This document shows positions 9,037-42,850 of a DNA stretch of 64,000 nucleotides, in pieces (the first letter of the stretch is position 1; each line of letters opens with the position of its first letter). A program made the position numbers and the translations under genes. The stretch comes from Blasia pusilla (Eukaryota): contig CM114271.1 of the NCBI GenBank assembly GCA_050084515.1, forward strand, positions 47,988,001 through 48,052,000, given 5' to 3'. The notes beneath the pieces are model-generated. The model was given only the letters and a program-made list of their open reading frames with translations, was not told the DNA's origin and searched no databases.

Positions 9037-9349
9037 GGTATACACCCTTCCCTCTCCCAAGCTCTCTCCTAGGTAACCTAGGCTCGCAAGTCACCTCCTT
9101 GGCTCTTGACCCGCCGTAGCGGGTCAACGTCCACTCCCCAAAGTGGGATGTCAACTATTAAAAGAACCGGAAACTTGCTCGAAATAATAAGTTTCTCAAT
9201 ATAGCTCCAATGAGCCGAAACGATGGGGAAACCCGCTCTCTCAGGTTACTCGTGGCCTCAATAGGTCATCCTCGACCTTTCGAGGTTGCCTTCAGTATCT
9301 TCGAAAGCATGCTACTAGATCTCACCGATCTATCCTTAAAGACGTGAGA
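8648..9349 (-). mobile_element. Solo LTR-like (A+B) repeat with 4-bp TSD GACC; contains a (CT)n tract
   Basis: Ends TGTCGTGCG...GACGTGAGA are flanked by GACC on both sides (8644-8647, 9350-9353). It is the reverse complement of 11156-11660. Confidence 0.78.
8954..9031. repeat. (CT)n microsatellite
   Basis: Perfect dinucleotide run of ~78 bp. Confidence 0.97.
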
Positions 9350-11996
9350 GACCAAACCTTAAATGGAAAAAAAAACTTTTCATTTTCTACATTGTCGAAC
9401 TATCTCATCTTGACCTATAATTTGGTACACATCATCCCCAAAGTGCATGTAGCTTTCTTTCAAAGTTTCAAGAAAAAATGAGTTCTGACCAAAAGCTCGA
9501 AATGTTTTAAGTCATTTCTTAACCCGTGCCATCAAACCTTCAATGAAAAGAAAGTATTTTCATTTCCCATATTGTCCAACTATCTCACGTTGATCTGAAA
9601 TTTGGTGCACATGGTCCCCAAAGTGTATGCATCTCTCTTGCAAAGTTTCAAGAAAAATGGATTTTTGACCAAAACCTCAACAATCGCGAAGATATTTTTT
9701 AACCCGCGTCATTACACCTTTGATGAAAAGGAGGTCTTTTCAATTTTTTATCTCGTCCAAGTATCTAATCTTGAGCTGAACTTTGGTACATATGATTTCC
9801 AAGGTGCATGTCATTCTCTTGAAAACTTTCAAGCAAAATGAAGTTGTAACAAAAACCTCAAAATTTGTTAACTCATTTTTTGAACCCGTGCCTTGAAACC
9901 TTGAATCAAAAGAATGTCTTTTTATTTTCCATCTTGTCCAAATATCTTATCTTCCTGATCCCCAAGGTCTCTTGCAGAGTTCCAAGCAAAACAAAGATTT
10001 GACCAAAAGTTCATAAATTGTTAACTCATTTTTTGAATCCTACTCGACCTTAAACCTTCAATCAAAAGGAAATATTCTCATTTTCTATCTTTTCCAATCA
10101 TCTCATTTAGAGTTGATAGTTGGTAAACTTGATCCCCAAGGTATATGTTCCTCTCTTGCAAATTTTCAAGCTAAATTGAGCGGTGACCAAAAGCTCAAAA
10201 ATAACTAAGTCATTTTTTGACCCACGCCATTAAACCTTCAATGAGAATGAGGTATTTTCGTTTTTCATCTTGTCCAAATATCTCATATTGAGCTTAACTT
10301 TGGTATCCATGATCCCCAAGGTGCATGTAGCTCTCCTCACAAGTTTAAAGCAAAATGGAGTTATGACCAAAAGCTAAAAAAATTTTGACTCGTGTTTTGA
10401 ATCGACGTTAATAAATCTTCAATGAAAATGGGATGTTTTCATTTTTCATCTTGTCCATTTTTTATCATGTTGCATAGAATATGTATTTTGAAATTTGAAA
10501 TTTGCAAGAGAGGAATGTATCCACAAATTCATACTTTCTAATTTGACCCTCAATGAAAAAATCATTGTTTTATTAGGATGAATGTCACAAAAAGGGACTT
10601 CTTCCAAATAACATTCTTACAATAATCTTTACAAAATAAGTTTGCTACAACCATTTACTAATCCATTTCACTAAGGTCACTACTCACTTTACTAGTCTAG
10701 GTCTATGGTTGGGTTTAGTGGATTAAGATGTAGGCGGTAATTTGAAGGCTCAAGAATTCAAATTCGGCAATGATTTCTTGTTGCAATTGTTTCATTATGG
10801 GATAAAATGTATGAAATATCCATCAAATTGATGGGTTGATAGTTTGAGAGATCCGATATGAGAACATCATTATTGTTAGGCTCATCAACTGAGTCCACTT
10901 TTTCATTGTTCAAAGATTGTGGAGGAGAATCCTGCATAGGTTCACTTGACTCAATGGAATAATTATGAATTCCTATCGGTGCAACAATCTGAGGGTCGTA
11001 GGTTGTGTTAACAGAAGTGTCCGATAGATGCGGTTCTCTAGAAGTCCTCCTTTGTTGCTCTTCCTCGTGCTCTCGAATCCAATATTCCATAACATCTTTG
11101 TCTCGTCGAGACACCTCAGAGTCAAAATTTTCTATATTGTCGATAAAAGAATCCTTGTCACGTCTGTTATAATAGATCGACGAGATATAGTAGAGTGCCT
11201 TCTCGAGTAGTGGAGGACATGCTCAAGAGGTCGAGGATGACTAGCTGAGGCCCCGGAAAACCTGAGAGAGCGGGTTTTCCCTTCGTTTCGGTTCATTTCG
11301 AGCCATATAGATAAACTTACTATTTTAGGCAAGTGCCCTTTTAAGTATCTAGTCGACATTTTATTTTTGGTACATGGCTCTTGACCTCCTACATCGGGTC
11401 AAGAGCCAAGGAGGTGACTTGGGAGCATAAGTTACCATGGAGAGAGCTTGGGAGAGGGGAGGGGTATACCTCAAGGAGAGAGAGCTTGAGAACTCATTCT
11501 CTCTTTGTTGAACCTGTTGGCACGAGGCGGCCAAGCTATGGTGCCTTGCCTTTTGAGTGTAATCCAAGCCTCTAATCAGGGTAGTAGGTTTGGTTTGACA
11601 TTGAGAGAGACATGTGAGAGTGCACACATGTGAGAACTATGGTGTTGTGAGAGAGATTTCACCGTATTTTACAAAGAGAGAATGAATGAGTGAGAGAGCT
11701 TCATGGGGGAGCTCGTTGGTTGCTCGATGTTTGGTGCAGGTTGGGGGACCGTGTTCCCCGCTTCATGGCTCATGGGAGTGCTTATCGAAGCAAGAGTCAT
11801 GCGAGTTTTCTGTTTTGCCTTTTTTTTTTACGAGAGAGTGGCACGTGGAAGCGCTGACCAATTTTTTTTATAGGAATTGAATATGGGGGTGGATTGCTCC
11901 ATGCCGGTGCTCTCGGGAGCACCATATACATTCTCACAGGTTTTACATTTTTTTGAGAGAAATAAGCGCGGAAGCGGTGCAAAATCTTGTGGAGGA

Positions 11997-12404
11997 TGTC
12001 ATGACCATACGGATTATGTCGTAGAGTATAGTGTGGTAGTAGAGGCCATACCTTATGTAGGGCCGCTGTGTCTAGGTAGAGATGCGATTTCATACATAGG
12101 GTTGGGAGTTACTCAGTAAAGGGTGACTTTTCCAGTAGGGCCCGCTCTTAGGTTGGTGGATATAAGGTGGAGTGCACTCAAAGAACAGTTAGTTCTTTGA
12201 GTTGAGCGTGTTGCGTTGGGAGTTAGCCTTGGTAGTGAGTAGAGCTCTTGGCTATGGTGTTTCCCGCAAGCTTCGACCTAAATTCTCCCATCGTGGAGTG
12301 GGTTTGGCTCGATTGTATGTGATTCTATATGTGTTTTATGATAGTAGGTCTTTCACGAATTTCACTCAAAGAACTAACGTAGATCGATAGTAGCTTCAAT
12401 TGTG
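11997..12404 (+). repeat. Terminal repeat A1 (5' incomplete LTR)
   Basis: Matches 21144-21518 (about 13 substitutions by eye, plus a ~34-bp indel near the end). It lacks segment B. Confidence 0.9.
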
Positions 12405-12967
12405 GATCAGTAGCATCTAGTTAGGGCTGATTGTGTACTCAGCCGTGGATGTTCGTGGCTTGTGGCCTATGTTGGAGTTGTGAATCTGGTGCGTGGTTGG
12501 TTGGGAAAGAAGCGCCTTGCTGAGAGCTTTCCAACGCGCTTTAGATCTCCGGATTTCGTCAAGGGAGTTGGAAGTTATCAAGGATTGAAGATTCTGGTTC
12601 GTGTTCGACGGTTTTATGATGTGGAGAGCTTGGAGTGCGGAAGCTCTGTTGAAGTTCATCCAGATCGGGTGAGAGGTTCTTGTTGTTACTTGTATTTTGA
12701 TCTCATGTGAAGCTATCTGCTTGAGTGTGTGGAGCGTTGCGGATTCCTACGTGCATGAAACTGGGCGGAAGCGCTGTCGGATTTGCGATTCTGGAGGTGT
12801 ATGGACAGCAACTTTGTCTGAATTTTAGCTCCGAGTACAGAGCTTGATTGTAGCTGATTTCATGTGGAGAGATATCTATGGTGGTCAATTGAATTCTGGT
12901 CGAAACAGATTCAATTTTGGTCAAGGATTTGTGAAGTAATTGCTATTCGAAATTTCGCTGACTAGCT

Positions 12968-13021
12968 CTTCGAGGCAACTCGAAGAGGCTTCGAGGCAAC
13001 TCGAAGAGGCTTCGAGGCAAC
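12968..13021. repeat. 21-bp tandem repeat (CTTCGAGGCAACTCGAAGAGG), ~2.5 copies, in the element 5' region
   Basis: Directly visible; each unit can form a CTTCGAG/CTCGAAG hairpin. Confidence 0.8.
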
Positions 13022-13940
13022 TGATGGTAGCTCGGGGCGTGGGCGTGAGAGGCGGAGTAGGGAGCAAGGAGCAAGCAAGCAAGCTTTCTTGCTTGGGCGT
13101 GAGGCATTTTTAGCAGGATTTGTGATTTGAGTGTTGCATAACAGGTCACCCATCTTTGGGCTATTCTGCGTGGAAGACGCTTAATTGCTGAGTTCTTAAC
13201 TATGCCACTATACACACTGTTGTAGCTCATTTGGTGCTGTTCGGAGAGGTGTTAGGCACTTTATGCATTTCAAGTTTTTGGTTGATGGACCTCTAGCCCA
13301 TCGTGTGGTGTAGCCTCTCCATGCAGGTGATATTTTCAGGTGCTGCGAGTTCGATTAGCATGTCATCGACCCGCGGAGGAGTAGCTATTACGTTAGAATT
13401 GTGTGGTGGGTTTTCTGGATTCAGGGGATTCAGGGGAGCGCCACGTTTGGTGGATTGTGTTACCTTTATTTCTATTTGCGATAGGAGGATTGTGGTTGGA
13501 CTTCCTGTGTTTGGATCCCCTCCATCGTTGCTTCTTGCTTGCGCGCCCATTATTAGGGTTGACGCTAATTTCCAGAGTAGTGTTACTCCTGTGTGCTACT
13601 GGTAGTGAGGCTCGAGTGATGGCCAGTAGACCGTGGGAAGCTTCTTGTGGTGATGACAGGTTAGGTTGCCTACACCCATAGCTAGTAGAGCTAGAATAGT
13701 ACAGCGACATCGACGTCACTTTATTACTTAGTGGTGGTAATTTGGTGGTGGGGCGGCATCGGCGTTGGTCATCACGGAGCTGTCTGGTGGTCTGGTTGGG
13801 GACAGTGGTGGTTTCACACGGAGTGGATTTAGGTATCGGCACCTTTTCCACTTCCGACGGTTGATGAAGAGGAGGACGAGGGTGTTCCAAACACCTAGTC
13901 TTCTACGTTGTTATCGAGTGTTGCAGCTTCATTGATTTGG

Positions 13941-15411
13941 GACATGGACGGGATATATGGGGCCATGAAGGGCCCACGACGATACTCGGGTGCAGTGGGC
14001 ACCATTGGGTTGGAGGACTTCATGCAGGAGTTTGATACGTGGTGTGATATGCAGATGTTGCGGAACGCCACGTTGTTTACACCCTTCTTGGCTTGGAAGG
14101 GGTTGTTTCAGAACTTGGAGGGACCACTCATGGATGATTACCATGAGTTTAGGAAGGACCATGTTGCTGAGATTGAGGCGTGGAGACAATATTGGTCTCC
14201 AGGCTATGTGTTTATCACCCATGGTGGTATAGGTAGTAGTGCTCCTACTATGCCAGCCAGCCCGACGTTGAGTGGTACGAGTATGAGCCGGAGTGGGGGT
14301 ACCAGTGGAGGTACCCATGGAGGTACCAGTGGGGGTACCAGTGGAGGTACCAGTGGGGGTACTAGTGGAGGTACTGGTGCCCCACCATCGTTTAGCCCGG
14401 TTGCAGAGTTCTTCAAGAGGTTGAAGAAGAACTATCAAGGAGTGAAGACAGAGAAGTTGAGGAGTCTTCAAGAATTTGAGCGAAAGACTGGTGAGAGTCT
14501 TTGTGAGGCATACACTCGTATATGACCCTTGATTTCAATTACCCAGGGTGTGACTGAGGCTCAGGCAGTCTTGTTTTGGTATGGGATCTTGGACAGAGAG
14601 TTGCGCCGCAGCGTACGTGATGCTACTCTTATGAGTGATGATTCACCCACATTGACCCATGTGTTTGCTCTATCTGAGAAGATTGAGCTTACCATGGTGA
14701 AGGAGAGAGTGGTGACATCGGCATTCAGTAGGGATACAACTACTACTTCTCGTGTTCATCAGCCCACCTCACAGTCTCGTAGTTGTGGTGGTGGTAGTAG
14801 TAGTGGGAGTCGTGGGGGGTACACACGACCTCAGTCAGGTCCTATAGGGACACTTGCGCAGAGACCATTGCCTTCATTTTTGCCCTGCCCCAAAGAAGGG
14901 ACGATCATGTTGGACATGTGGAGGTGATCATGTTAGGAAGTTTTGTCCCCAAGAGGATGGGAGACGGACTTTGGAGGATGGGCCTCAGTCGGCCCCAACT
15001 CAATGTGATCATTGCGGGAGACTAGGTCATCCTCGAGAGCGTTGCTTTGATCTTCATCCAGAGTTGAGATTAGGCCGCGGCCGTGGTGGAGTAGCTCCGA
15101 GAGGCCGAGGTGGTAGAGGTGGTAGGGGTGGTAGAGGTGGTAGAGGTGGACCAGTGGTTGGAAAGCCTACGGTGGCTACCCCTACCACTACGACAGAGGC
15201 AGGTATGGCTGCCATGATTGAGCACTTGGAGCAAAAGTTGGCTACTATGGCTGGTATCCAGCATAGATCAGGCTCGGGAGCAGGGGCTTCCACCTCATAT
15301 GGAGGGGATGATCTCTCTTATACGGCGAGTGCAGCACAAGTTGAGGCATCGGCTGCAGTTACGAGAGGAGCCACGTGGTGCTACTGTGGAGTTGGACCCA
15401 TAGAGGGGTGA
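13941..15411 (+). pseudogene. gag: gag with two zinc knuckles and RGG tract
   Basis: CWTCGGDHVRKFC and CDHCGRLGHPRERC knuckles, (GGR)n, GGTS repeats; a stop at 14523-14525 and a frameshift near 14880. Confidence 0.8.
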
Positions 15412-15777
15412 GGTTGGGAGGCAGGCTAGGCTTCCCCAGTCATTCTTGTTGTTTGAGGTGCATAGGTCTCCATCCATGGTTCCTACGCAACCTATTGAGC
15501 CGACAGTGGGGACTGAGGCATCTACATCGCGTGTAGTAGACACGAATGCAACATCCAGTGCAGTATTGCGGATGGCAACTTCAGTGTTGGGATCCCCATT
15601 GTTTTCAGTGTTGCGGTGGAGCGACCCTCTATGTCAGGTGTAGCATTGAGTACTAGTGCTACTTGGCAGGCAGCAGCGGCGAAGATGGATGCATTACCAG
15701 CCCGGCCAGCCATTGATCGTGAGAGGCTTACACATGGTGTATGTATGTTGGACAACCGGAGTGGGATATTCCGATAG

Positions 15778-16110
15778 GTGAGTCCTACAAGACAGGTGTA
15801 TAGACCAGATAGATTCTTGTTAGACTCTGGTGCCCAACCTTTGATGTTGGGAAAGGCGGCATGTATTAGTTTGGGTATTCGGAGGTCAGAGCTTGAGCCT
15901 TGCCCATTTCAGATTCAAACATCACTTGGAGGAGCCAATGATAGGTTTCAAAAAATGACACGGGAGAAGTTTTCTGTACAATTGAGACCAGATCATGCGA
16001 CTAATAGCTCCCGGTTGGGAGTATCTGCGGTAGTCACATTAGCCGAGTCGTATGATGTACTAGTTGGAGGAGCAGTATTGTACCCGATGGGTTTTCAGAT
16101 GGATTACTAG
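15778..16110 (+). pseudogene. Retroviral-type aspartic protease
   Basis: FLLDSGAQ catalytic motif and a downstream YDVLVG. Confidence 0.8.
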
Positions 16111-16549
16111 ACTGAGACAACATCTTATAGACCTGGTTGGCAGTCTGGGGATGGATGTATGAGCCAAGTTCCTGTGAGATTTATTTATGGGGCTCGACCA
16201 GGAGGGTCTTCCCCAACAGTGTTGGCATCTGTGGCAGGTTTTAGTGGAGTAGTCACTTGGCCAGGAGACTTTTTGGAGGATAATGTTTCTGCTATGGATT
16301 CTCCTGTGCATGAGGAGGTAGAGGAGGTCCCTATTTTTGCAGCAGTGGCATCCTCATCGTTGGATGTGCCACTTTGGAGTTCAGGCGGTGCACTACGGCA
16401 GGAGGCTAATCGCCTAGTGCAGGAGGCTTGGTGTGAGGCTGTTATACCTCACGAGGAAGAGGAGGCCCCACGGCGGACTCCTACTTCTGGTCCAGTTGGG
16501 TTATCCCCTCTGGATACTACACCCATTGTATGGGAGTATCTGCCGGAGG

Positions 16550-17500
16550 GAATTTGTGTGTTAGATCTCTTTGGTGGGATTAGCACTGGTTTGGCCGAAG
16601 TGTTGCAGGCCGATATTCCTGTGCGGAGATACGTGTATGTGGAGCGAGATGAGACGGCCCAGAGAGTCTCATCCCGACATATTGGTCAGTTGATACGGAG
16701 ATATCATGAGTTATTTCCGCCATCAGCTATTCGTGGGTACCAGCCTGCTTTGCTGTCACACATTGCATTGTTGGGGGCACTGGACCTTGAGAGGGTTGGT
16801 CCTGTGGATTTGATGATTGCTGGATGGCCATATCAGGGTCATACAAGTGCTGGTCGTGATGAGGGATTACACGACCCTAGGTCTCGATTGTTTTGGGAGA
16901 TGTTACGGGTGTTACGACATCTTCAGGTTCATCAGGCACGTGCTCTAGCTTACATTCTAGAGAATGTTCCATTGTTGGGTGACACTCGGACCCGGATGAT
17001 GGCGAGTGTTCATAAGGTGGGGTCTTGGATTGGACTTGCGGTGTTGTTGGATGGAGCGCGAGTTGGCTCGCGTGCACATCGTCCATGCTTGTGGTGGACA
17101 AACTTGTTGCCTAGGGAGGTTCTACGTCGAGCATATGATGTAGTGCAGCGGGATCCTTGCCTTACAGTGGATAGTATCTTGGATATTGGGCGACTTTCTC
17201 ATGTGGTGAGGGTTATTGATTGGTCACCCATGGCAGTGGTGAACCGTGTGGGCCAGCCTAGGATGGCACTACCCACATTTGTGAGTTTTCCCTCGTCACA
17301 TGCATACAGGGAAGGTGGTCCCGGGCTTGTATGGGATTCTCATGTGCGATAGTTGGTGGAGCCTAAGGCTGATGAGAGAGAGCGTGCGATGGGATTTGCT
17401 ACTGGTGTGACAGCGGTTGCTTCCATTTCTGAGGCTTCACGACATCATGTGTTGGGTCAGGCCATGGACCTGAATTGTTTGACTTGGATTTTGATTCTTG
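16550..17500 (+). pseudogene. C5 cytosine DNA methyltransferase domain, DNMT3-like, inside pol
   Basis: Motif I VLDLFGGISTG, II YVERDE, IV DLMIAGWPYQG (PCQ->PYQ), VI YILENV, VIII AHRPCLWWTNL, IX-X ERERAMGF...SRHHVLGQAM. In-frame stop at 17350-17352. Confidence 0.88.
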
Positions 17501-17859
17501 GTATGGCCAAGCAGCGTCGACTTCGGACTATGTCTGTGGGTCTTCCACCCCTTGTAATGAGCTCGATGGCTACCAGGACGGTAGAGGCATCGGCTGGGGG
17601 CAAGGAGAGTAGTATTTTGCATCCTTGGAGTAAATGGGATGTAATGGTTGGGCATGTGGAGTTGGTTGCTCATGCTGGTGGAAGAGTTATTTTCTCAGAT
17701 GATGGTGTAGCTAAGGGTGTACCATCTTGTGAGGGGGTTGCGTAGCAGCCAATGGTATCGTCCTCTACCTCTAGTGTGCCAGTGGAGGAGACTTGGGAGC
17801 CATTACTTAGGCCCAAGCTTACGGGAGGTGTGAAACAACGCTTGACATAGTTCCTACGT

Positions 17860-19190
17860 GCTTATAGGAGTTGTTTTGCCTTTAGCATGAAGGAGTTGGG
17901 TGCTCTGGTTGGACCCGGTATACGGATTGATTCGGCTAGTGATACGCCAATTTCCGTCATCCCTATCGATATAGTGATATGGAGAGGGACCTGATTCAGA
18001 GTAGGACGTTGGACCTTTTGGAGGCTGGATTAGAGAAGTTGTCGCATGGAGAGTATGCACCAGCCACTCTCATGCCTCATAAAAAGGATATGCATGGCAA
18101 CTACACGGATAGGCGGATGTGTGGAGATTACCGTCCTATCAATCGACAAACCAAGGCCGATAGGTATGCCATGCCTACACCTGAGGAGATCTTTGATGTG
18201 GAGGGACAGGCAAAGATTTTCAGTATTTTTGGATCTTGGCAGATACCATCAATTGCCGATTCGGGAGAGTGACAAGGCCAAGACAGCATTTTGGGGTGTC
18301 AACTCTCATGGCAAGGATTGTTTATACCAGTGGAAATTCTTACTCTTTGGGTTGAAGAATGCACTTGCCGAGTTTCAGAGAGTGATGGACAGGATCCTAG
18401 CAAGGTTGGATTTTTTCGGTGTTACATTAATGATATCTTGGTGTTCAGTAACACGGTGGAGAAGCTTCAGATATATTTGCAGATGGTGTTTGAGCGGTTG
18501 AAAGCTCATGGTCTACGTTTGCATCCAGGAAAGTGTAAGTTCTTCCATGAGGATGTTGAGTACTTGGGTCATGTGATCTATCTAGGTGGTTTGGGAGTTC
18601 AGCAAGCAAAGGTGGAGGCTATTGCACTTATTCCGTGTCCGGTAGATGTGAGTAGAGTTCGAGCATTCATGGGATTGGCGAACTTCTGTCGGAGGTATGC
18701 GAAGGGATTTAGTGCTATGGCAAAGCCTTTGAACCAATTGCCGAAATCAGATCAAGAGTGGCATTGGGGAGATGATCAGGACAGAGCTTTTGTGGAGCTT
18801 AAGGCCCAGTTGGTGGCGGTGCCTATCTTGAGGAGACCTATCATAGGGCGCCCATTTCAGTTACACATTGATTGGAGTAGGTTGGGACTTGGAGCGGTGT
18901 TGACACAACATGATGATGAGCACATGGAGTTTCTGGTGGCCTATGCAAGTCGTTCGAATAATGCAGCGAAGTTGCGCTATAGTTCATATGAGGGAGAGTG
19001 CTTGGCAGTAGTGTGGGCTGTGGCACACTTTAGGTGTTACTTGTTTGGCACACAGTTTACCCTTGTTATCGATCACCAACCGCTCAAGTGGTTGATGGAG
19101 TCGACAAGCTTACAGGAAGCTTGCACGGTGGGCTCTTATCTTACAGAGTATGACTTCCGGTGGTACATAGACTGGAGTTGCCAACCTTGA
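17860..19190 (+). pseudogene. Reverse transcriptase + RNase H (frameshifted)
   Basis: RMCGDYRPINRQT...YAMP, FGLKNA, YINDILVFS (YIDD variant), KCKFF..VEYLGH; RNase H LHIDWS.LGLGAVL, AYASR, YSSYEGECLAVVW, IDHQPL. Confidence 0.93.
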
Positions 19191-19569
19191 TCTTTGATGG
19201 GTTGAGTAGGAACCCATGTACTAGCCAAAAGGATACAATGGGGCTAGATGGCATGGCGAGGTTGATGAGGAGATGGTGCCAGGTTGGCATGCATCCGCCT
19301 TTTTATGTTGGTTAGGGGTGGACTCTAGTATGGAGGACCACATGATATCTTACTCTAGTCAGAGGGTAGATGGCCAGCCTTCAGATCCTAAGGTTGGAGA
19401 TGGTGGTACGGATCAGCGTGATATTCATGATGATGCGTTGGTGTTGGAGTTCCTACGGACCAATAAGGTGCCAAGCATAGTGAGTGCCAAGGAGCGAGAC
19501 CGTGTTCTTCAACGTGCTAAGAGGTATCAAATGGAGGGAACACATATTCTCCGTGTGTGGGAGGATGGT

Positions 19570-20862
19570 AGAGTACGAGTAGTGCCGTATTTGGCTCAGA
19601 GAGAGCGCATTGTGCGAAATGCCCATGAGGAGTTGGGATATTTTGGTGTTAAGCATACGTATAGCTTACTCCTTGGTCAGTATTGGTGGCGTGGCATGCA
19701 TACTCAGGTGCAGCAGTTGGTGTCATGTTGTATGGTTTGTCACCGGGTGAGGGCATCATTCATTGTCCCTACACCAAAGTTACACCCCTTGCCTATTATG
19801 GGGTTGGGTTACTGTTGGAGTGTGGACTTTGCGGGACTGTTACCGTTGACTGTTCGACATCATCGATATGTGTTGGTGATGGTGGAGCACTTCTCCAAGT
19901 GGATTGAGTTGGTGGCATTACTTGACAAGGCAAGTGAGGGAACGGTGTATGCGTTTCTTGATAGAGTGCTTAGTCATTTTGGTGCACCAACTGAAGTGGT
20001 GATCGACCAGGATACAGAGTTTTAGGGTGAGTTTCAAGTTTTGTGTGAGAAGGCGTTGATTGATCATCGGACCACGTCTCGAGATCATCCAGAGGCGGAT
20101 GGTTTGGCTGAGCGTGTGGTTCAGATGGTGAAGAGGGCATTGCGCAAGTATGGCCTACAGAAGGGGCATCTTGGAGACTGGGATATTCAGTTGCCATGGT
20201 TAGCCATGGGGTATAGGTTCAGTCGCCAAGCATCCTTGGCTTCCTTCTCACCTTATTTTCTGTTATACGGCCGAGATCTAGACTTGTCTGCAGCAATTCG
20301 TCGGGAGTCTAATGAGGTGGTGAACCTTGATGATCCAGAGATGTGGATAAGAGTGTGTTCACAGCGGGTAGAGCTCTTCCGGAGAGTTATGCCAAAAGCC
20401 TTTGAGAATCTTGCCATTGCTCAACACAGGGATACGTTGCGGTATGCAACCATTCGGGGTGGAGGTTATCGACCATCGATTCGTAGGTTCCATGTGGGAG
20501 ACTTTTTCTATTTGCAGTTGATTGCACTGACAACGTTGGATGTGACGGCAGGCCGCACTATTTTACGAGTGCGCGAGATGTTAGCTTCTGGAGTTCTCAT
20601 GTTGGAGGGTCGTGATGGAGTTGTTTGGAAGGACCATGTGCGCAATTGTGCGCCATGTCATCTTCCAAATGTGGATGGTACTGTTGACCGAAGCTTAGCC
20701 ATGATACGTGCTAGCTTGAGGTGCATGTTGTGTGGGTCTGCTGGTAACGCAGCCCGTATGTTGGTGTGTGATCGGTGTTATAGGGGTTGGCACATGATGT
20801 GTTTGACTCCACGTATGGATGTTGTTCCTACTAGAAGGTGGGGTTGTCCTTGATGTACTTAG
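19570..20862 (+). pseudogene. DDE integrase with C-terminal PHD finger
   Basis: Zn region HEELGYFG...CMVC; core VDFAG...EHFSKW...IDQDTEF...HPEADGLAER. PHD is CMLC...VCDRC.RGWH..CL......WGCP*C, with a TGA at 20851 in place of one codon and then TGT. Confidence 0.9.
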
Positions 20863-21036
20863 GAGAGGTAAATGACTTGATCTTTGCATGATATGGATTA
20901 CAGATGTGCGACTAACGATGGGGCAACCTAGCACCCGGCCTTCTGATTCGTGCACCCAAGAAGGTGTATAGCATGTAGTAGATGTATAGGGCTACCTGGG
21001 AGTTAGAGGGACCTAACCGCCAATTATGGGGGCGAG

Positions 21037-21141
21037 TTGTGGTACACTTGTGTTTGTGGATGCTCTCGTCTATGTTATGTATGTATGTGAGTTTGGTATG
21101 TCAGCGATGTATGTTGTATGACGATGTGGATTTGCACGACA
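21037..21141 (+). repeat. Repeat B1 (105 bp, ends GCACGACA)
   Basis: Near-identical to 21513-21617. Confidence 0.9.
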
Positions 21142-21143
21142 GC

Positions 21144-21617
21144 TGTCATGACCATACAGATTATGTCGTAGAGTATAGTGTGCTAGTAGAGACCATACCT
21201 TATGTAGGGCCGATGTGTCTAGGTAGAGATGCGATTTCATACATAGGGTTGGGAGTTACTCAATAAAGGGTGACTTTTCCAATAGGGCCCGCTCTTAGGT
21301 TGGAGGATATAAGGTGGAGTGCACTCAAAGAACCGTTAGTTCTTTGAGTTGAGCGTGTTGCGTTGGGAGTTAGCCTTGGTAGTGAGTAGAGCTCTTGGCT
21401 ATGGTGTTTCTCGCAAGCTTCGACCTAGATTCTCCCATCGTGGAGTGGGTTTGGCTCGATTGTATGTGATTCTATACGTGTTTTATGACAGTAGGTCTTT
21501 CACGGATTTCAATTGTGGTATTCTTGTGTTTGTGGATGCTCTCGTCTATGTTATGTATGTATATGAGTATGGTATGTCAGCGATGTATGTTGTATGACGA
21601 TGTGGATTCGTACGACA
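21144..21617 (+). repeat. 3' terminal repeat A2+B2 (complete LTR-like unit TG...CA)
   Basis: A2 at 21144-21518 matches A1; B2 at 21513-21617 matches B1. Confidence 0.9.
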
Positions 21618-24342
21618 AGGAGAAAGAGACGTTAGGCTTTATGATAGTCCCTGTCAATTTTTATCGGAATGTTCAATTCAAAATATTTTTTAACTTTGTT
21701 GTAGATGGTAAAGTTGTGCACGTTGTGCAATAGACGATGCGTAATTTGGAGTTGGGATCAAAAAGAAATGGACAATCTTGCAAAATTTCCAATGGTGGGG
21801 ATTTTTAGGGTTAAATTATTCATACCCTAAACCACCCGCTGCGTTGGTGGCAGCCTTTGCCGTCCATGGCCCATGTTGATGATCAACAGTCATTGTTAAT
21901 GGTCAAGTATCATCGTCACCGTCAACGGTACACCATCCATCGTGGGCTGCCGCCACCGCCTAGCACTGTTGAGATCCGCGTTCGGCCATTGCCCACCCTT
22001 GGTTGCTATTGCCGCCATTTCGGAGTGGAGATTCTTCCACGACGAGCGTTGATTCTCTGACTTGCGCCAAGTGTTTATCTTGATTTCCGAGAAACACCCT
22101 TGTCTCCAAACCTTGAGTTTGTGTAGATGTACACCTAATCCCTGGCACCCTTGTTGGTCAATTTATTCCTATGCTTTGTTATGGATAAAACCATAACTAC
22201 TCCAATTTCTCTTGGTTGAAGAGGAAGAAACCACTTGTGCTAATATGGACTTAGCCACAAAGCGCAATGTTTGCGCATTTTCTTCGTGCATGCTCCATCA
22301 ATCAAAGGGGCTAAGTGAATCGATAACTTCCCTACCAAACTCGTCCAGAAATAGTTCCACATGGTTCACAATATTGCCCAACTTTCGCAAATAATTACCT
22401 ACATAAGAATTAGCTTTGGTGACATTGAGGCCATGCACCCCCTTTGCATGAAAATTTAGATATTGTTTGAAATCTCTCATGCACTCAACATTTGAAGTGA
22501 TATCTTGAACACTATTAAGAAGATTCTAAGGGGCGAGGATGTAGCCTATTGAATGCAACTTGTTGTGGATAAGTGCCCATGACCTAGAAATAACATCAAC
22601 CATTTCCGTAGCATTGGACATTTTCACAAAGAAACCGCAACGCCTTCCCTTCATACTGGGCCACAGAGTTATAGAAAAAGAATAGACCGCTTCCATTATC
22701 TCAAATATGTGGCAATAAATACGCATTGTCATTGCTTTATGCCCATCACACTCTCTTAACAGAATAATAGTTGGTAAATCAGCATCAAACTACTCTTCAT
22801 CTTCTATCCAAAAATCGTGATTGGCCATAAAAGTCTCAATCTCTCGTGCCTTTTCCCTTGCCTCGTATTGCTCCCATTAAATACTCCCTAAAATAATTTG
22901 TGGAAATTATGGCTTCCATGAATTTGGCCATCACCCAAGTTCTAGTCCTCACAAATATTACCATCTCACGAGCTTGTGCAAAAATCCTGTTCACCCGAGA
23001 TTATTTACCTCATTCTTCACATGTTAGATCAAGAGAATGTGATACGCATCCACCCCAAAGAATATAAGAAAACTTTGCTTCGATTAGTCTCTTTGTTGCT
23101 CGCTCATTACTAACATTGTCTATTATAAGTTGCAACATACTTTTCTTGATTGATATGCATGATAGTCCTCTCTATGTGACCTGCCAACCATTCTGCCATT
23201 TGGGACTCCCCCTTGGTGTCTACCGACTCAATCATGATCTCACCTTGTGGACATGAGACCATGATGTTCACTAAAGACTCACTCCTCACATTGGTCCAAG
23301 AATCCTTGATGATCTCGGCCCCCAAACGCAAATTATCCAATATGCCATCCACCTTTTCCTTCATCTTTCCCATATGTTTCTCAAGTAGGGTGGTGCGCAA
23401 CGAATTATAACTAGGATGTGAGTAATCCTTCACTCTTGTTGTTGCCAACATTGCTTGTTTGATAGAATCTTTCCGTACTACATTGAATGTTATTTCACAC
23501 TCATATAAACACTCCTCCCACATGTCATTTGCAACTTTTATTCCTTGGATGTTGAAAGAATCCCTCTAATCAGCTTGCTTTGTCCCATAACTATGAGTCC
23601 CTCGAATCGGCCCAGCAACACCATTGCATTCCTTTAGACTATCACACGGTGGCATGTGTGCAACCCCATTAACATTTGGTACAACATTAACACTATTTCC
23701 TATCTTTCGCAAACCTATGTATAATATAATGGCGTTGTATCCACTTCACTAGAGGATCTCATTTCCCTTCTGTATCCATTTCCCACAAGTACCTTGTTTC
23801 AAAGGTCCCATTGCATACCAAGAGGGACCTTCACATATAATTTGGCATGATGGGTATCTTGATTCCCATCTTTTGTCTTTTGTGTCTCTCTTGCAAAATA
23901 CTCCACCATCTGCGCGATATGATAAGTTTTCATAAAACATGAGCAATACTTACACCGCCATATGCTTGATGTTCTACCTTCTATTTGTACTTCTTTTTAA
24001 TGTTCCTTCACGATATGTTTGAGTTCTTTGGCTTTGGTCATGACTATAGGCACACACTAACCTCACCCAACAATATTTGGATAATTTGCAATAAATTTAC
24101 AAATCCGATAAAATGCAAGAAAAATAAAATGCAAGATATATCGAGCGATAAAATGTATGCAAATTACACCAAATATTAATTTTTAATGCTCCAATAATAA
24201 ACTTTTAACACTCACTATGAACAAGAAAAAAATATGCTAACCTAGATAACCGAGATAACTTAAATTATGAGGGTTATCCCGTAGCAAAACATATTCTCAC
24301 TTATCAAGTTCAACTATCTATGAAGAGAAAAACTTCAGAGAA

Positions 24343-24525
24343 AGAGAGATGTAGGGAGGAATAAGATTGTGAGGGTATACAAAAAATGAGAGAGATGTAG
24401 GGATGAATAAGATTGTGAGGGTATACAAAAAATGAGAGGGATGTAGGGAGGAATAAGATTGTGAGGGTATAAAAAAATGAGAGGGATGTAGGGAGGAATA
24501 ATATTGTGAGGGATACAAAAAATGA
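24343..24525. repeat. ~43-bp tandem repeat x4 upstream of hAT copy 1
   Basis: GAGGGATGTAGGGAGGAATAAGATTGTGAGGGTATACAAAAAAT units. Confidence 0.85.
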
Positions 24526-24949
24526 ACAAGTTTATATAGGGGAGGATGGAAGGAAAAGAATGAACCCTTATAACTCCCCAAATCATCTATCCCCACTTAC
24601 ACTTTATTACTAAACCATCTCCACTAATCACTATTTAGCAAATATGATTTTGCTCTCCTATCCGATTTATTTTTCACATATCCTAACCTCTTTATCTACA
24701 TTTATTTCCAACTAACCTATTTTCCAATACAACCACCCTATTCAATCATATTTTTACATTCTCCTTTCTTTCTCCACCAATACTATTCCCATTTTTTCAG
24801 TTACTTTTATTTCTAACTAACCTATTATCTACTACAACAACCCTATTATAATCCCTCAAGCCTTCAATCACCCTTCCCCTACAAAAATTGCATTTAAGTC
24901 CACTCGAACTTTGCTTCATCTCGGTTGCATGCCATCAACCTGCTAGTAG

Positions 24950-25555
24950 CGTGCCAAGGTCGCCTTAGCCCGCCATTTTCTCATGCGCTCCAAGGCTTTT
25001 GTCGAGCCCGCCCGTGAACTCCAAGGCACACGCTTGGCCCACCCTCCGCTCGCTTGGCCTGCCCCGAGCCCGCAAGCCCACACCTGGCCAGCCCGCGCCT
25101 AACCCATCCCCAAACCCTTCCTTGGCTTGCACTGCCCGCCCTCAGGCCCGCCCGCCCCCCAACTTGCCATGCCCGTCCTCGGCCCACACCAGGCCTGCCC
25201 CTTGCACGCTTGGTCTGCCCCCAACCCGCCAAGGCCGCCCTAGGCCCGCCCTTGCCTAGCCCGCCCCCTAGCTTGCTAGGCCCGCCCTCGCTCCACATGT
25301 ACACCATGCTTGCCCCTTGCCCACTTGGCATGCCCTCGCCCCAGACTAGGCCTGCCCCCAGCCTCCAAGGCCCGCACAAGAGCCCGTGCCTGGCCTACCT
25401 ACAAATTGCAAGCCCGGCCCTTGGCACGTTAACCTGCGATAGGTGCGCAACCCTGCGTGGGAGCTAGCGCATAGCCTGCCTCCATGCCCGCTAAGCCTGC
25501 CCTCGGCCCGCACCACGCCCGCCCCTACCCCTCAAGCATGCAATGGGCCTGCCTC
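24950..25555. repeat. GC-rich GCCCGC-motif region upstream of hAT copy 1
   Basis: Dense GCCCGC/GCCTGC motifs; positional equivalent of 54890-55830. Confidence 0.6.
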
Positions 25556-28500
25556 ACTACATGATAATGATAACAACGATTTTCATGACAATGACAACAA
25601 CGCTTTTGTAGCACAAAATGACACTACAAGTATGTGCTCTACTCAGGTAAATATTCCCTATTATGCATCTGCCCTTGCAACTTTTTCTTTTCTCTTCTTT
25701 GGTACTTAAGGCGTATCAATAGATTCCATCAACATACATGGACTTTGCTAACATGATCTTGAGTGATATCAACAACATACTCCACGCACAACCACCCCTT
25801 CATATTCAGCCGACCGAGAACCAAATGTGGTTTAGTGACAAGCTTGGAATGGGATGAGCCTTTGGGAGTATGGAGTGACTAGTAGATAGATACAAGCAAT
25901 AATATCTCAAAGGCAAAAATGGAATGAGAAATTTAGATTACACACCAAGGATACACCTTCCACAAATATAAAATTTCTCTCTTTCTTTTTTTACGTGTCT
26001 TTAATGTTGGTACAATGCCATGTTTTTTAACAAAGCTCTCTTAGAATACGGATATTAGTCTTATAATTCTCAGATCTTTAGAAAGAAGCACTCATGTTCA
26101 AAGCTATAAACTTCAAGGAGACCTCACTCATAAGGACCCATGCTAACAAATTATATGCCTACATGCATGTGGTAGGATTATCCTAGACCAATTGCGTACT
26201 TTGTGATATCAGTTCCATTTGCCTATCAAGATGCAAATAGACTCAAAAGCATTGAAGGCTTCCCACTTGATAAACCGTTTAAAATTAGAAAAGACCAATG
26301 GTGAACTCCCATACTTTGTACCCCTTGAGTCAGATCCATCTACACTGCTGATTACGCGTATCTTACCACCATTTCCACCACTTGCACAACAACCTTCATG
26401 CTCTGTGATTGACTTTGATTTATTTATCTACAACAACATAGACCTTGTTTTGTCACCAAGAAAATGCAAGTATGCATGAATAGGTATATTTTGTTTCATT
26501 TTTCAACTTTTTCATTACTTGAATCATAAGTTTTTTAACTACATATTCTATTAGATTCACTACTACATATTCACTAATACCATTTTCTCTTTCTTTTCCA
26601 CATTTTTCATTATATTCTCAATTTCTTTGATAAGTTATATCACAAGTTTTCGTAATCGATATTATCTCGGCTCCACTATTACACATTCACTAATAATATT
26701 TTGTCTTTCTTATGCAAATTTTGGATTAAATTTATAGCTTCCTCACTTCTACATGCAAATTCCTGAAACTTAGTTTTAATGACTATTTTTGCATATCACT
26801 AAATTTTTGCCACATTACATCAGTGTTCACACTTTTCCAAATCCATTATCTCAAAGCGTGAGATTTTTTGCTCATCTTTGCCTACCGGCATTCCATAATC
26901 TACAATAAGAAATTTGTATATCTTTGTACAGTTACATTTTTGAATGTTCCAAATGGATTTCAAATCTAACATTAGAAATTTTATACTTATGTGACCACCA
27001 CTTCAAAGCTTCATTTGGAAACTTTGTTACATCATTTCTCTCTTTCTTAAATACCAACTTCTTATAGTTTTTCTTTGAATTTTTGCCATAAATAAAGCTA
27101 AACTATCTTGCTAAATTGCTTCTTAATTGATTCACGTTTATTGCGTTGTGCATGCTCAGGTCAGAACAGGAAGATATTGAAGACGTCGACCATACTCAAC
27201 TAGTGCTGTCAATGCGTCAAATCATCATAACTAAGTGGAATCCCATTCAAATTTGACCCCACTTGATACACATTCCCCCCTTTCACTTCACGTGTATCGT
27301 GCAATAATGGCACAACTAGATAGCTCTAATAATCAGATTAACAAGCTAGAAAGGACAATCACAAACATTAGTCATGAACTCTCTGCCCTCTATGAATAAA
27401 ATGCTATCCCTATGGATATTGTTTCAATTCTAAAGGAAAAATTGAAGGATGCAAAGACTCACTTCAAGGATTTTTTGAAAGAGGTTGAACCGTTGATAGA
27501 CTATAGTCCCAAGATGTAATTACAAGCTGGGATCATTCAATCCTTACTCCGACGTTATACAACAAGTATTTTTCCATCATCACCTTTGTTTTTCATATCG
27601 GAATTCATTTCATTACACTTCAATATGATTCTTTGACACTACATCTTTGTATTTATATACATCATGCCTAATAACTTTACTTTATTCATTTCACACTCCT
27701 AATGCTGACATTGTATCAATTACTACACAATGCATAATAGTAAAATGTACCATGCACAGATATGTTAACTTTCACCCGTTCCATATAACTATTGCACTCT
27801 GCAACCTATATTGCATTTTGAGTTCTTTGTTAATGTACCTTGCAAGTGTTATCTCCAAGCATCCACTCAAAGTGATTTTGTACCTACTTCAAGCACAACT
27901 ACAGAAAAATCCTTGGCTTTGAATAATATTTCTTTCTTTCTTTTCCGCACTCAATGTCAATACATCTACCCGCACTTGAACTTTGAATCAACCGTTCTGT
28001 CACTCTAGACTACAATTGTCATGCTCTTAGTGAAGTAATATTACTCTATAAACACTATTTCTCTATGAGCTACACTATTTTTGGACAAAACATTACTATA
28101 CTTTCATATTTGTGCATTGAAGTTTTTCTCAATACTTGTGTTATTTTGGAATACAATTTTCATGATCTCAATAGCAATAATCTTATTCTTCAAAAGACTT
28201 TACTTATTGAACTTCTTATTGGCAAAGTCCCTCATATACATATATCCATTAATTGATTCTTATTAGAAAACTACAAGGTTTACTTGAGTTCCACTCTTCC
28301 CTCCCATTCAATCTATCTCACAAAAAAGGAGCGTGTAATTCCATGTACACACTGCTTTTTCAATCACATACTTAAAAAAGATGCATGCTTATATTTAAGA
28401 TTTCCTCACTCAGACTCTTATCATTATAGTTTTCTTTCTCTACACCTATGCTTTCCATATATCAAACAATTTGCCAACGATCCAATTTTGGGATGAAGTT

Positions 28501-40337: not shown

Positions 40338-42850
40338 ATGGCGGTGGCACACGCGATAGTGGCACTAACAGCGTCGCCGTTCTCAGCTTCTTTATCACAT
40401 GCGACGGTCAGACTGCAGCACAATTTTGCGGCACCGCCTGCACTGAGTAAGGGGCGCCATCCTCTCGTTTCCGTCGTGGTTGGTGTGCCATGGTTTGATG
40501 GTTTTCAAGGTTTTCAAATGCTGTCGTGTAGAGGGTTCAAATGTTGTCAGGGAATCTCAGTCGGTAGTGGTGTGCCATGGTTTTGAAAGCTTCCAAATGC
40601 TGTCGTGGAGAGGATTCAAATGTCGTCGTGGAGGAGGAGAACAGTTCTCCCTCTCTCTGATTTGATTTAATATCGGGGTTGCGGCCCTGTAAATCTGCGA
40701 CCGGGCCTTGTAAAATGCAGCATTGTTTTTCTTCTCTCTTCTCCTTTCCGTGTGTGAGCTGAGATAAGGAACTTGCTGTTTTGTCCATCCAATGCTACCC
40801 CGTCCTTTCCCCCGTATTTCCATTTGAGGACTAGTTCGGAGTCTTGCCTTGGATGAGATTCCGGACGAAAGGTTTTAATGTTTGGCTGCTTTATATTTGT
40901 GAGAGTCGATCCCGTGTTCGAAGTCGACTCCAGGATAGTTTTGCAAGCAGATAGTGTTTCATGATGAGGTTTTGTCAGACCCACACTGAATCCAGATGGT
41001 GTTTTCACTGGAAAAAAAAGGGATAATTCTCCTCCTAAATGAATATTGAGACTCAATTTGTGTCGTGGGTTGTCTCAGAATTGAGGAAGTCTCTAGCAGT
41101 GCGACCATCTGGGGACCAGTCAGCTAGTTTCGGAGCTCCATCACAAAACTCTGGAATTCCGAAGATTGCAACAAATGCAGTTGCTGTAAGAACACAAACT
41201 TGAGATTCTTCTGTGACCTGCAAATCGTATATGGCTTTTTGTTACTTTCAGATGCTCAATCGTGAAACTGTAGATCAGAGGCCTCCTGGGGCGCGGGGGG
41301 TATTCTTGGTTGTGGTCTTAATGAGTTGTGGAGACGTGCAATTGGCATATAGAGTCAGCCTCTTCAGATTGTATGCTCTATGTTTTGCTTCACTTGCTGA
41401 ACAACGGGTGCAAAGCTGGTAATTTTCCATTTTGGTATACTTCACTACGTAGCAGAAGCTCATACCAAGCCCATTCCTCAACAAGATATCGCATGCAAAA
41501 CTAGTTATCAGCATTTTAGCGTATTTTGTCTAGCATTTTAGGATTAAGTCAGTTGTCAATGTTCACCATACTCTTACATGCAAATACTGCACTCTTACAT
41601 GTGAAAACCAGGCAAAGCAAGAGGCGCCTATGAGCACTGAAGCAAAGGGTCCAGGGTATATCATAATCTCTGTTCACCTGCGATCAACTCCTTTTGGCTT
41701 CTGGATGGTGTTTCTGTCACCCCTTCGCCTTGCTAGCTTGAAATGTCCAACAGTACAACAAACACCAGGAGCAAGAATAGAATTGAACACATGATGTTTC
41801 TTAGGTGTTCGTGCATTGGACGTTATGGCTCTTGTTTGTAACTAACATGTTGCTTTACAAACTGTCTTGACAAGCAGGCATGAACTTCTTCTGTATGAAG
41901 CTCTACGTGAGGGTCTTGAGGAGGAGATGGAGAGAGATCCCAGAGTTTGTGTGATGGGAGAGGACGTTGGTCATTATGGTGGCTCTTACAAAGTTACAAA
42001 AGGCTTTGCAGAGAAGTTTGGTGACTGGAGGCTACTAGACACTCCCATTGCTGAAAATTCCTTCACAGGGATGGCAATTGGTGCAGCTATGACTGGATTG
42101 CGGCCAGTCATAGAAGGTATGAACATGGGTTTCCTGTTGCTGGCCTACAACCAGATTTCCAACAACTGTGGAATGCTGCACTACACCTCGGGAGGCCAGT
42201 TCACTATCCCATGTGTTATCAGAGGTCCAGGTGGTGTGGGTAGACAACTCGGGGCAGAACACTCTCAGCGGTTGGAATCCTACTTTCAGTCTGTGCCTGG
42301 ATTGCAGTTAGTTGCTTGCTCTACTCCCTACAATGCCAAAGGTCTCATGAAGGCTGCCATTCGAAGTAACAACCCTGTGATTTTGTTCGAGCATGTGCTG
42401 TTATACAACTTGAAGGAGACAATTCCAGATGAGGACTACGTATGCTGCCTTGAGGAAGCAGAAATGGTTAGGCCTGGAAAAGACATCACCATCCTCACCT
42501 ATTCGCGAATGAGACACTACTGTCTCCAGGCTGCTAAAACTCTTGTCAACAAAGGGTATGACCCGGAGATAATCGACATCCGCTCCTTGAAGCCCTTTGA
42601 CATGTTCACAATCGGAAACTCTGTGAAGAAGACTCATAAAGTCCTCATAGTGGAGGAGTGCATGCGAACTGGTGGCATAGGTGCCAGTCTGAGGGCTGCC
42701 ATCATGGAGAACTTCTTTGACTACCTAGATGCCCCTATTGGATGCCTTTCTTCACAGGATGTACCCACTCCTTATTCAGGTCCGTTGGAGGAGCTCACGG
42801 TTGTTCAACCTCACCAGATTATCTCGGCTGTAGAACAGTTATTGGCCTAG
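40338..42850 (+). CDS. PDH-E1beta: Plastid pyruvate dehydrogenase E1 beta subunit with transit peptide
   Basis: Exons 40338-40446, 41079-41185, 41612-41655, 41878-42850. [18 protein letters not shown]...[14 protein letters not shown]...DTPIAE...[18 protein letters not shown]; Ser/Ala-rich N-terminus. Confidence 0.95.

Follow-up and report, generated by a model that had tools for sequence, protein, structure and literature searches.

Two retroelements that encode a cytosine methyltransferase of their own are the closest described systems to the locus presented here. KnitGypsy-Dnmt3 of the streptophyte alga Klebsormidium nitens has a Dnmt3-type domain in its Gypsy pol region (de Mendoza et al., 2018; PMC5890265), shows a Ka/Ks below 0.2 and has repeats which the legend of Fig. 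4c of that paper describes “as in DIRS”, i.e., in the layout A-coding-B-A-B. SymbioDIRS-Dnmt3 of Symbiodinium encodes a DNMT with de novo CG methylation in yeast, and the two are treated as unrelated retroelement classes in the available part of the same paper. What a retrotransposon gains from encoding an enzyme of the class that silences it in the host has been a standing question since 2018, and the sole prior streptophyte example resides in an alga that is hard to manipulate and for which the domain assay failed. Two later sources, PMC12344493 and the preprint 10.64898/2026.05.21.726589, cite the 2018 work in their available parts under the term “streptophytes” (Gypsy-DNMT3), and Marchantia is unmentioned in the available part of PMC5890265. 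Here we describe an element of this kind in a stretch of 64,000 nucleotides of Blasia pusilla (contig CM114271.1 of assembly GCA_050084515.1, positions 47,988,001 to 48,052,000 of the forward strand), which is referred to as the window at its full length. Positions 11997-21617 of the window are occupied by one Ty3/Gypsy-like retroelement with gag, protease, C5-methyltransferase, reverse transcriptase (RT)/RNase H and an integrase with a C-terminal PHD finger, as read from the stop-to-stop open reading frames (ORFs) of the plus strand between 13.9 and 20.9 kb. The element is very probably a decayed, non-autonomous Ty3/Gypsy-like copy with a DNMT3-type methyltransferase between protease and RT, and belongs to the lineage of KnitGypsy-Dnmt3.

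The methyltransferase domain contains motif I (FGGIS, 16570-16584), motif IV (GWPYQ, 16822-16836), motif VI (ENV, 16960-16968), motif VIII (AHRPCLWW, 17074-17097, with AHRPC instead of the AHRPR of the relatives), motif IX (ERERAMGF, 17374-17397, beyond an in-frame stop at 17350-17352) and motif X (VLGQAMD, 17449-17469). The original prediction, a reading of the DNA letters without database searches, had listed the C5-methyltransferase motifs in this order and in the frame of the protease, and indeed the ORFs 15778-16110 and 16111-17352 share one frame, with the TAG at 16108-16110 between them. It had also correctly placed the domain inside pol, but with a start at 16159, which lies in the protease-methyltransferase linker, whereas the domain proper begins at about 16540. 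The profile check that it had proposed gave a match: the window translation (16111-17745, stops as X) hits Pfam PF00145 with an E value of 1.3e-6 and 28.5 bits, well above the curated cut-off (22). A profile built from the window plus 19 relatives was compared with solved structures and matched DNMT3A with an E value of 3.5e-21 and DNMT3B and DNMT3C with about 1e-19, followed by plant DRM (8e-12 to 2e-10), HhaI (3e-6) and the tRNA enzyme DNMT2 (5.7e-5 to 1.7e-4); neither DNMT1 nor chromomethylase (CMT) was among the 52 matches of this profile to solved chains. Using the Marchantia protein P0001 as phmmer query against solved structures, DNMT3A was the best match as well (1.7e-8). Since DNMT3A aligns in three collinear segments (motif I, motifs IV-VIII and motifs IX-X), the motif order is not permuted. 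DRM chains align solely over the motif I-VI part, and an assignment to DRM was rejected, as the window order I, IV, VI, VIII, IX, X is not the circularly permuted one with VI-X before I-V. By these comparisons the domain is closest to DNMT3 among the C5 methyltransferases and has the standard motif order, as had been predicted. The protein searches that gave the element relatives returned none of the plant host enzymes DNMT3, DRM, MET1 and CMT.

Those protein searches yielded 42 longer relatives and 82 of similar length, 124 in total. Moreover, a scan of metagenome contigs with the family alignment found relatives encoded in 442 of 500 candidate stretches, out of which 80 loci were kept; the same scan with the single window protein as query gave no relatives. 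Among the named relatives are 25 clusters of Marchantia polymorpha, three of Calypogeia fissa, Riccia sorocarpa, and the mosses Sphagnum fallax, Sphagnum troendelagicum, Sphagnum tenellum and Sphagnum jensenii. The identity of the element to every relative tried is 54-77%. The window is collinear with the proteins P0001, P0004 and P0029, the last of which is a single protein of 2318 amino acids that contains CCHC, protease, DNA_methylase, RVT_1, RNase H and integrase in this order; distant relatives show the same level of identity to the window in all three domains, with 40%, 40% and 43% for P0029. One further relative, P0070, is labelled “DNA cytosine methyltransferase” from a metagenome-assembled genome of Candidatus Obscuribacterales, and it is most likely the contig of a eukaryotic element that was binned into a bacterial genome.

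The K. nitens protein P0128 matches the family profile with an E value of 2.2e-70 and carries DNMT, followed by RT, RNase H and integrase. Its alignment to the window is collinear, with an identity of 31% for protease and methyltransferase, 35% for RT/RNase H and 44% for integrase, and it presumably represents one of the copies in de Mendoza et al. (2018). An RT/RNase H tree was made from 27 proteins, the window and 9 of 28 loci, with a Haematococcus Gypsy element as the root. Every element of the order protease-DNMT-RT, including the window and P0128, falls into one clade of 21 rows with a support of 100 in the Shimodaira-Hasegawa-like approximate likelihood ratio test (SH-aLRT), and the window groups with Marchantia rows. 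The methyltransferase tree, made from 52 of the 165 proteins with a match to the domain, places the window in a clade of 13 rows together with Marchantia and Calypogeia (SH-aLRT 99). Both trees are quick searches on subsets with SH-aLRT support and without bootstrap, and they recover the same main groups.

The family keeps the full catalytic set, namely FGG, the Cys in P-C-Q or E-C-Q of motif IV, ENV and the R-x-R of motif VIII. The original prediction had considered that the family might lack the catalytic Cys or that the domain might be free of purifying selection, and neither was found. The Cys codon (TGC or TGT) is present in 77 of the 80 loci, with Tyr in two and one locus not covered, and motif IV has its Cys in 36 of the 42 longer proteins. 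The TAT at 16831-16833 of the window, which encodes Tyr in place of the catalytic Cys, had rightly been read as a point change. The same change recurs in the dead copies P0034, L034 and L035; it is a recurrent G-to-A transition and not a shared derived state. When the window is compared with nine loci at dS 0.5-0.9, the ratio of nonsynonymous to synonymous substitution rates (dN/dS) of the methyltransferase lies at 0.19-0.25, next to 0.18-0.27 in RT/RNase H and 0.18-0.26 in integrase-PHD. Two nearly intact pairs have values of 0.10 (L036/L037) and 0.09 (L047/L050), and very close dead copies come near 1 (L004/L005, 0.98; median 0.54 over 105 pairs), a spread to be expected where active lineages are under selection and copies decay neutrally once inserted. 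The methyltransferase is therefore under purifying selection equal to that on RT/RNase H and integrase.

Furthermore, the family is transcribed in sense in the species of the window. The DNA run X1 and three RNA runs of the same species were mapped to 11900-21700 at a likeness of at least 90%. From the 6-12% of each RNA run that was sampled, 4235, 4060 and 4558 reads were mapped, almost all with the first mate on the minus strand, which corresponds to sense RNA in most stranded libraries. The RNA depth is 44-82 over the methyltransferase and drops after about 21383, and family reads cover the whole element. The very large summed contig depth in X1 indicates that the family is highly repeated there. 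In each run, between 16 and 40 RNA reads join 19381 to 20390 across nine other letters, which were recorded for 27 reads in one run and 38 in another, and a few reads join 14029 to 20471. The ends of these joins are not GT..AG, and they are probably transcribed deletion derivatives rather than the result of splicing.

For live copies of the lineage we propose that the protease would cut the polyprotein and that the methyltransferase would travel with RT and integrase in the particle. Either there or at the integration site, the enzyme would methylate the element's own new DNA, and the new copy would thus arrive pre-marked like resident host DNA. Reverse transcription would be self-primed from the transcript start, and the PHD finger of the integrase may steer insertion to chromatin with unmodified histone H3 tails. 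Several points weigh against this proposal. The window copy is dead, makes no enzyme and is capable of none of these steps: compared to intact relatives it has at least six frame changes and about ten in-frame stops overall, and it carries PYQ for PCQ at the catalytic site. The original prediction was correct in that protease and methyltransferase share a frame, but this frame is broken by three stops in 15649-17721. A stop-free methyltransferase domain of 265 residues is present in just 7 of the 80 loci, and hence most other copies of the family are dead too. Per run, just 37-68 of the RNA reads reach a likeness of at least 99% to the window, which means that sister copies supply most of the RNA. 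The methylation activity of lineage members is predicted from the protein sequence, and the term “DNMT3-type” derives from matches to solved chains of animal DNMT3 and plant DRM. Finally, the isolated domain of KnitGypsy-Dnmt3 gave no detectable methylation in yeast, in an assay that its authors deem inconclusive (PMC5890265, available part). As to the state of the window copy, 13 of 368 positions differ between its repeats A1 and A2, and its many transition mutations fit a long residence as methylated, silenced DNA.

Among the alternatives, a one-off capture, in which a single copy picked up a host DNMT3 fragment or a host gene simply adjoins the element, agrees with the one element copy found within the 64 kb of the window. 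The original prediction had named this case as one that would speak against it, but with 442 relatives on metagenome contigs, 124 related proteins, the same domain order in the single long ORFs of intact relatives (P0029) and main groups shared by the RT and methyltransferase trees, such a capture is next to inconceivable. It is also quite improbable that the bryophyte elements gained their methyltransferase independently of the Klebsormidium element, i.e., by convergence. In the methyltransferase tree, the bryophyte clade does not have the Klebsormidium clade next to it, the branch of the latter is long (1.07), and two domain orders exist, all of which speaks for separate gains; against this stand the same position of the domain, the conserved protease-methyltransferase linker, the identical A-coding-B-A-B layout and the single RT clade with SH-aLRT 100 for this domain order.

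Two further alternatives concern the role of the domain rather than its origin. The conserved domain could act on RNA, either the element's own transcript or tRNA, or could be a DNA- or chromatin-binding or structural module and no DNA methyltransferase. The lack of detectable DNA methylation by KnitGypsy-Dnmt3 in the inconclusive yeast assay would fit this, RNA methylation is raised for the LINE-borne DNMT in the available part of PMC5890265, and purifying selection shows that the domain is used but not for what. However, the retained catalytic set argues against a purely structural role, and the closest solved relatives are the DNA enzymes DNMT3A/B/C, with DNMT2 matching at just 5.7e-5 to 1.7e-4, so that we consider a role other than DNA methylation unlikely. 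Slightly less unlikely, but still far from favored, is an enzyme that is active on DNA for self-restraint and not for mimicry or evasion, and which silences new copies, keeps the copy number tolerable and thereby prolongs the life of the family. This is offered as a possibility in PMC5890265 (available part), and most copies seen are dead with many transitions, the kind of decay that methylated DNA undergoes; yet any old element in a methylating genome should decay likewise, and sense transcripts of the family reach an appreciable depth.

The features of the window element are collected in Table 1.

Table 1. Parts of the retroelement in the Blasia pusilla window (window positions; SEQ letters as read on the given strand).
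Feature	Position	Strand	Evidence
Left target-site duplication AGGA	11993..11996	+	same 4 bases directly 3' of B2, 21618-21621
Repeat A1, 368 nt, begins TGTCATG; in the place of the 5' long terminal repeat (LTR), without B part	11997..12364	+	96.5% identity to A2
Primer-binding-site-like 16-mer, complementary to a stretch inside repeat A (self-priming type)	12364..12379	+	exact reverse complement of 21334-21349
gag (CCHC knuckle region), interrupted by stops and frame changes	13944..15604	+	
Aspartic protease (LLDSGAQ), ends at TAG 16108-16110	15649..16107	+	collinear with P0029 protease
Protease-methyltransferase linker, kept in relatives	16111..16539	+	unbroken alignment to P0001, P0004 and Klebsormidium P0128
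DNMT3-type C5 cytosine methyltransferase domain, motifs I to X unpermuted	16540..17470	+	PF00145, 28.5 bits
Reverse transcriptase and RNase H, frameshift at about 17952	17794..19190	+	PF00078, PF17917, PF17919; tblastn frames
Integrase (H2C2 zinc domain and DDE core), stop at 20023-20025	19225..20721	+	PF17921, PF00665
PHD finger, C-terminus of integrase	20722..20853	+	PF00628, E 4.4e-8, end of ORF 20026-20853
Polypurine tract GGGGGCGAG, directly before B1	21028..21036	+	read from sequence; same G-run before B1 in L030, L050 and L074
Repeat B1, 105 nt, ends CGACA, followed by a 2-nt spacer (gc)	21037..21141	+	94.3% identity to B2
Repeat A2	21144..21511	+	A1/A2 comparison
Repeat B2, ends CGACA, 3' end of the element	21513..21617	+	B1/B2 comparison

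By Pfam and tblastn, the element has the pol order of Ty3/Gypsy (protease, RT, RNase H, integrase last), and its termini are of the TG...CA type (TGTCATG...CGACA). RVT_1, RT_RNaseH and RT_RNaseH_2 were matched within the ORF 18273-19190, and Integrase_H2C2 and rve within 19225-20025. The gag and protease ORFs of the window gave no Pfam match at E <= 0.01, and both were assigned via collinearity with the relatives: the protease of P0029 is Asp_protease_2 (residues 784-876), and tblastn with the Marchantia protein P0001 aligned gag in 13944-14774, 14893-15372 and 15368-15604, in three different frames. Within gag, a 47-nt internal direct duplication that encodes GGTS repeats is present at 14292-14374. 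In 12001-22000, across the whole element, the GC skew is +0.22 to +0.28 with T > A, and it is -0.22 to -0.27 in 22001-28000; this strand asymmetry may be a composition trait of the family or the outcome of one-strand transition decay.

The element does not have two identical full LTRs flanking its body, as its 5' end carries A only and the layout is A-body-B-A-B. The complete A-coding-B-A-B is also found in the loci L030, L050 and L074, and the B-A-B part in L010, L043, L077, L062 and L061. In four of four complete copies, the window included, the CGACA end of B and the TGTCATG start of A abut at the B1|A2 junction with a 2-nt spacer. This layout corresponds to a two-LTR circle of an element with (B-A) LTRs that is opened at a B|A junction, and it may have arisen in this way. 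Perfect 4-bp target duplications flank three of the four complete copies, with AGGA in the window, AAGG in L030 and GGTC in L050, and in L074 three of the four bases agree. A 4-bp duplication fits a DDE integrase and not a tyrosine recombinase. Therefore a DIRS/PAT-like retroelement, which would have a tyrosine recombinase and no duplication, was rejected; the repeat layout alone is DIRS-like. A tRNA-type primer site with TGG is absent after the 5' repeat. Instead, A1 is followed by 16 nt that are exactly complementary to positions 191-206 of A2; the counterparts in L030 and L050 measure 11 and 14 nt. Self-priming elements of the Tf1 type show the same arrangement, with a complement to the inside of the repeat just behind its 5' copy.

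Regarding the PHD finger of the integrase, the closest solved fingers are those of KMT2C/D, DPF2/3, ATXR5, CHD4, KDM5B, BAZ2A, UHRF1 and PHF21A, which mostly read unmethylated H3K4 or the unmodified, free H3 tail. The Haematococcus lacustris proteins P0152 and P0151, as well as P0037 and P0129, carry a homologous methyltransferase in another domain order, RT-RNase H-DNMT-(G-patch)-integrase-PHD. Elements of this second order occur in Haematococcus lacustris and among many unnamed proteins, some with the G-patch, and have the PHD finger at the end.

The kind of element is already known, and what is new is a wider host range and some of the anatomy. Newly recognised are the 4-bp target duplications, the primer site of the self-priming type and the second domain order in Haematococcus. 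The original prediction had regarded methyltransferase-bearing retrotransposons as reported from Klebsormidium, which is correct (PMC5890265, available part), and as not described from land plants; in the literature searched, no description from land plants including bryophytes was found, while the supplements of PMC5890265 and PMC12344493 may list bryophyte copies. More broadly, and as a tentative proposal to which we give somewhat less than an even chance, there could be an old, Viridiplantae-wide superfamily of Gypsy-like retroelements with a DNMT3-type methyltransferase of their own. Its members would follow either the order protease-DNMT-RT, as in Klebsormidium and bryophytes, or the order RT-RNase H-DNMT-integrase-PHD, as in Haematococcus and in unnamed contigs, and would combine self-priming with internal repeats joined at their ends and an integrase that reads histones. 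In land plants including Marchantia polymorpha, the superfamily would be abundant, selected and transcribed. As the lineage is multi-copy in bryophytes, with at least 25 annotated Marchantia polymorpha clusters, the question of what the element gains moves to organisms with transformation, knock-outs and good methylomes. If the proposal is true, de novo methylation by enzymes of the elements may be ongoing in land plants and could be studied in a tractable model, and the elements may have given DNMT3/DRM domains to their hosts or taken them up from there. The element-derived gene models P0002, P0056 and P0097 of Marchantia and Sphagnum bear the UniRef name “DNA (cytosine-5-)-methyltransferase”, and gene models named in this way could inflate host DNMT counts in bryophyte inventories.

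Besides the element, the window contains a tandem array just upstream of it (9335-10470), with 5-7 units of about 180 bp each that are 61-81% identical. Two ORFs on the minus strand, 23110-23565 and 53026-53754, match DUF659 in Pfam (E about 1e-14), a domain usual in transposase genes of the hAT type, and both are probably remnants of other transposons. The only clear host gene seen in the window is a plastid pyruvate dehydrogenase E1-beta, represented by an open exon of 334 residues at 41846-42850 on the plus strand with Transket_pyr and Transketolase_C and an identity of 85-87% to the angiosperm chloroplast enzymes, which gives the window a plant-like character.

Compared to the known systems, the domain of the element resembles the host enzymes DNMT3A/B/C as its best sequence matches, with motifs I, IV-VIII and IX-X collinear. 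Unlike them, it has no PWWP or ADD, is embedded between protease and RT, and shows P-C-Q or E-C-Q in motif IV of the family. With chromoviruses the element shares a chromatin-reader module on the C-terminus of the integrase, which is a chromodomain there and a PHD finger (PF00628) here. The complementarity of 16, 11 and 14 nt to the interior of the repeat in three elements can be likened to the self-priming Gypsy elements of the Tf1/Sushi type. SymbioDIRS-Dnmt3 has a Dnmt3-type domain in pol and the A-coding-B-A-B layout as well, but according to the available part of PMC5890265 it uses a tyrosine recombinase, whereas the integrase of the present element is of the DDE type with an H2C2 zinc domain, and 4-bp duplications flank the element. 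The closest system is KnitGypsy-Dnmt3, which, as far as the available part of its description goes, has in common with the present family a Gypsy-type pol with an unpermuted Dnmt3-type domain, no introns, the A-coding-B-A-B repeats, conserved catalytic residues and a low Ka/Ks (<0.2 there, 0.1-0.25 in the present family). In contrast to KnitGypsy-Dnmt3, the present hosts are bryophytes (Marchantia, Calypogeia, Riccia and Sphagnum) and the window copy is dead; furthermore, the bryophyte clade has a PHD finger on its integrase, and the sequence of the K. nitens protein P0128 ends before that point.

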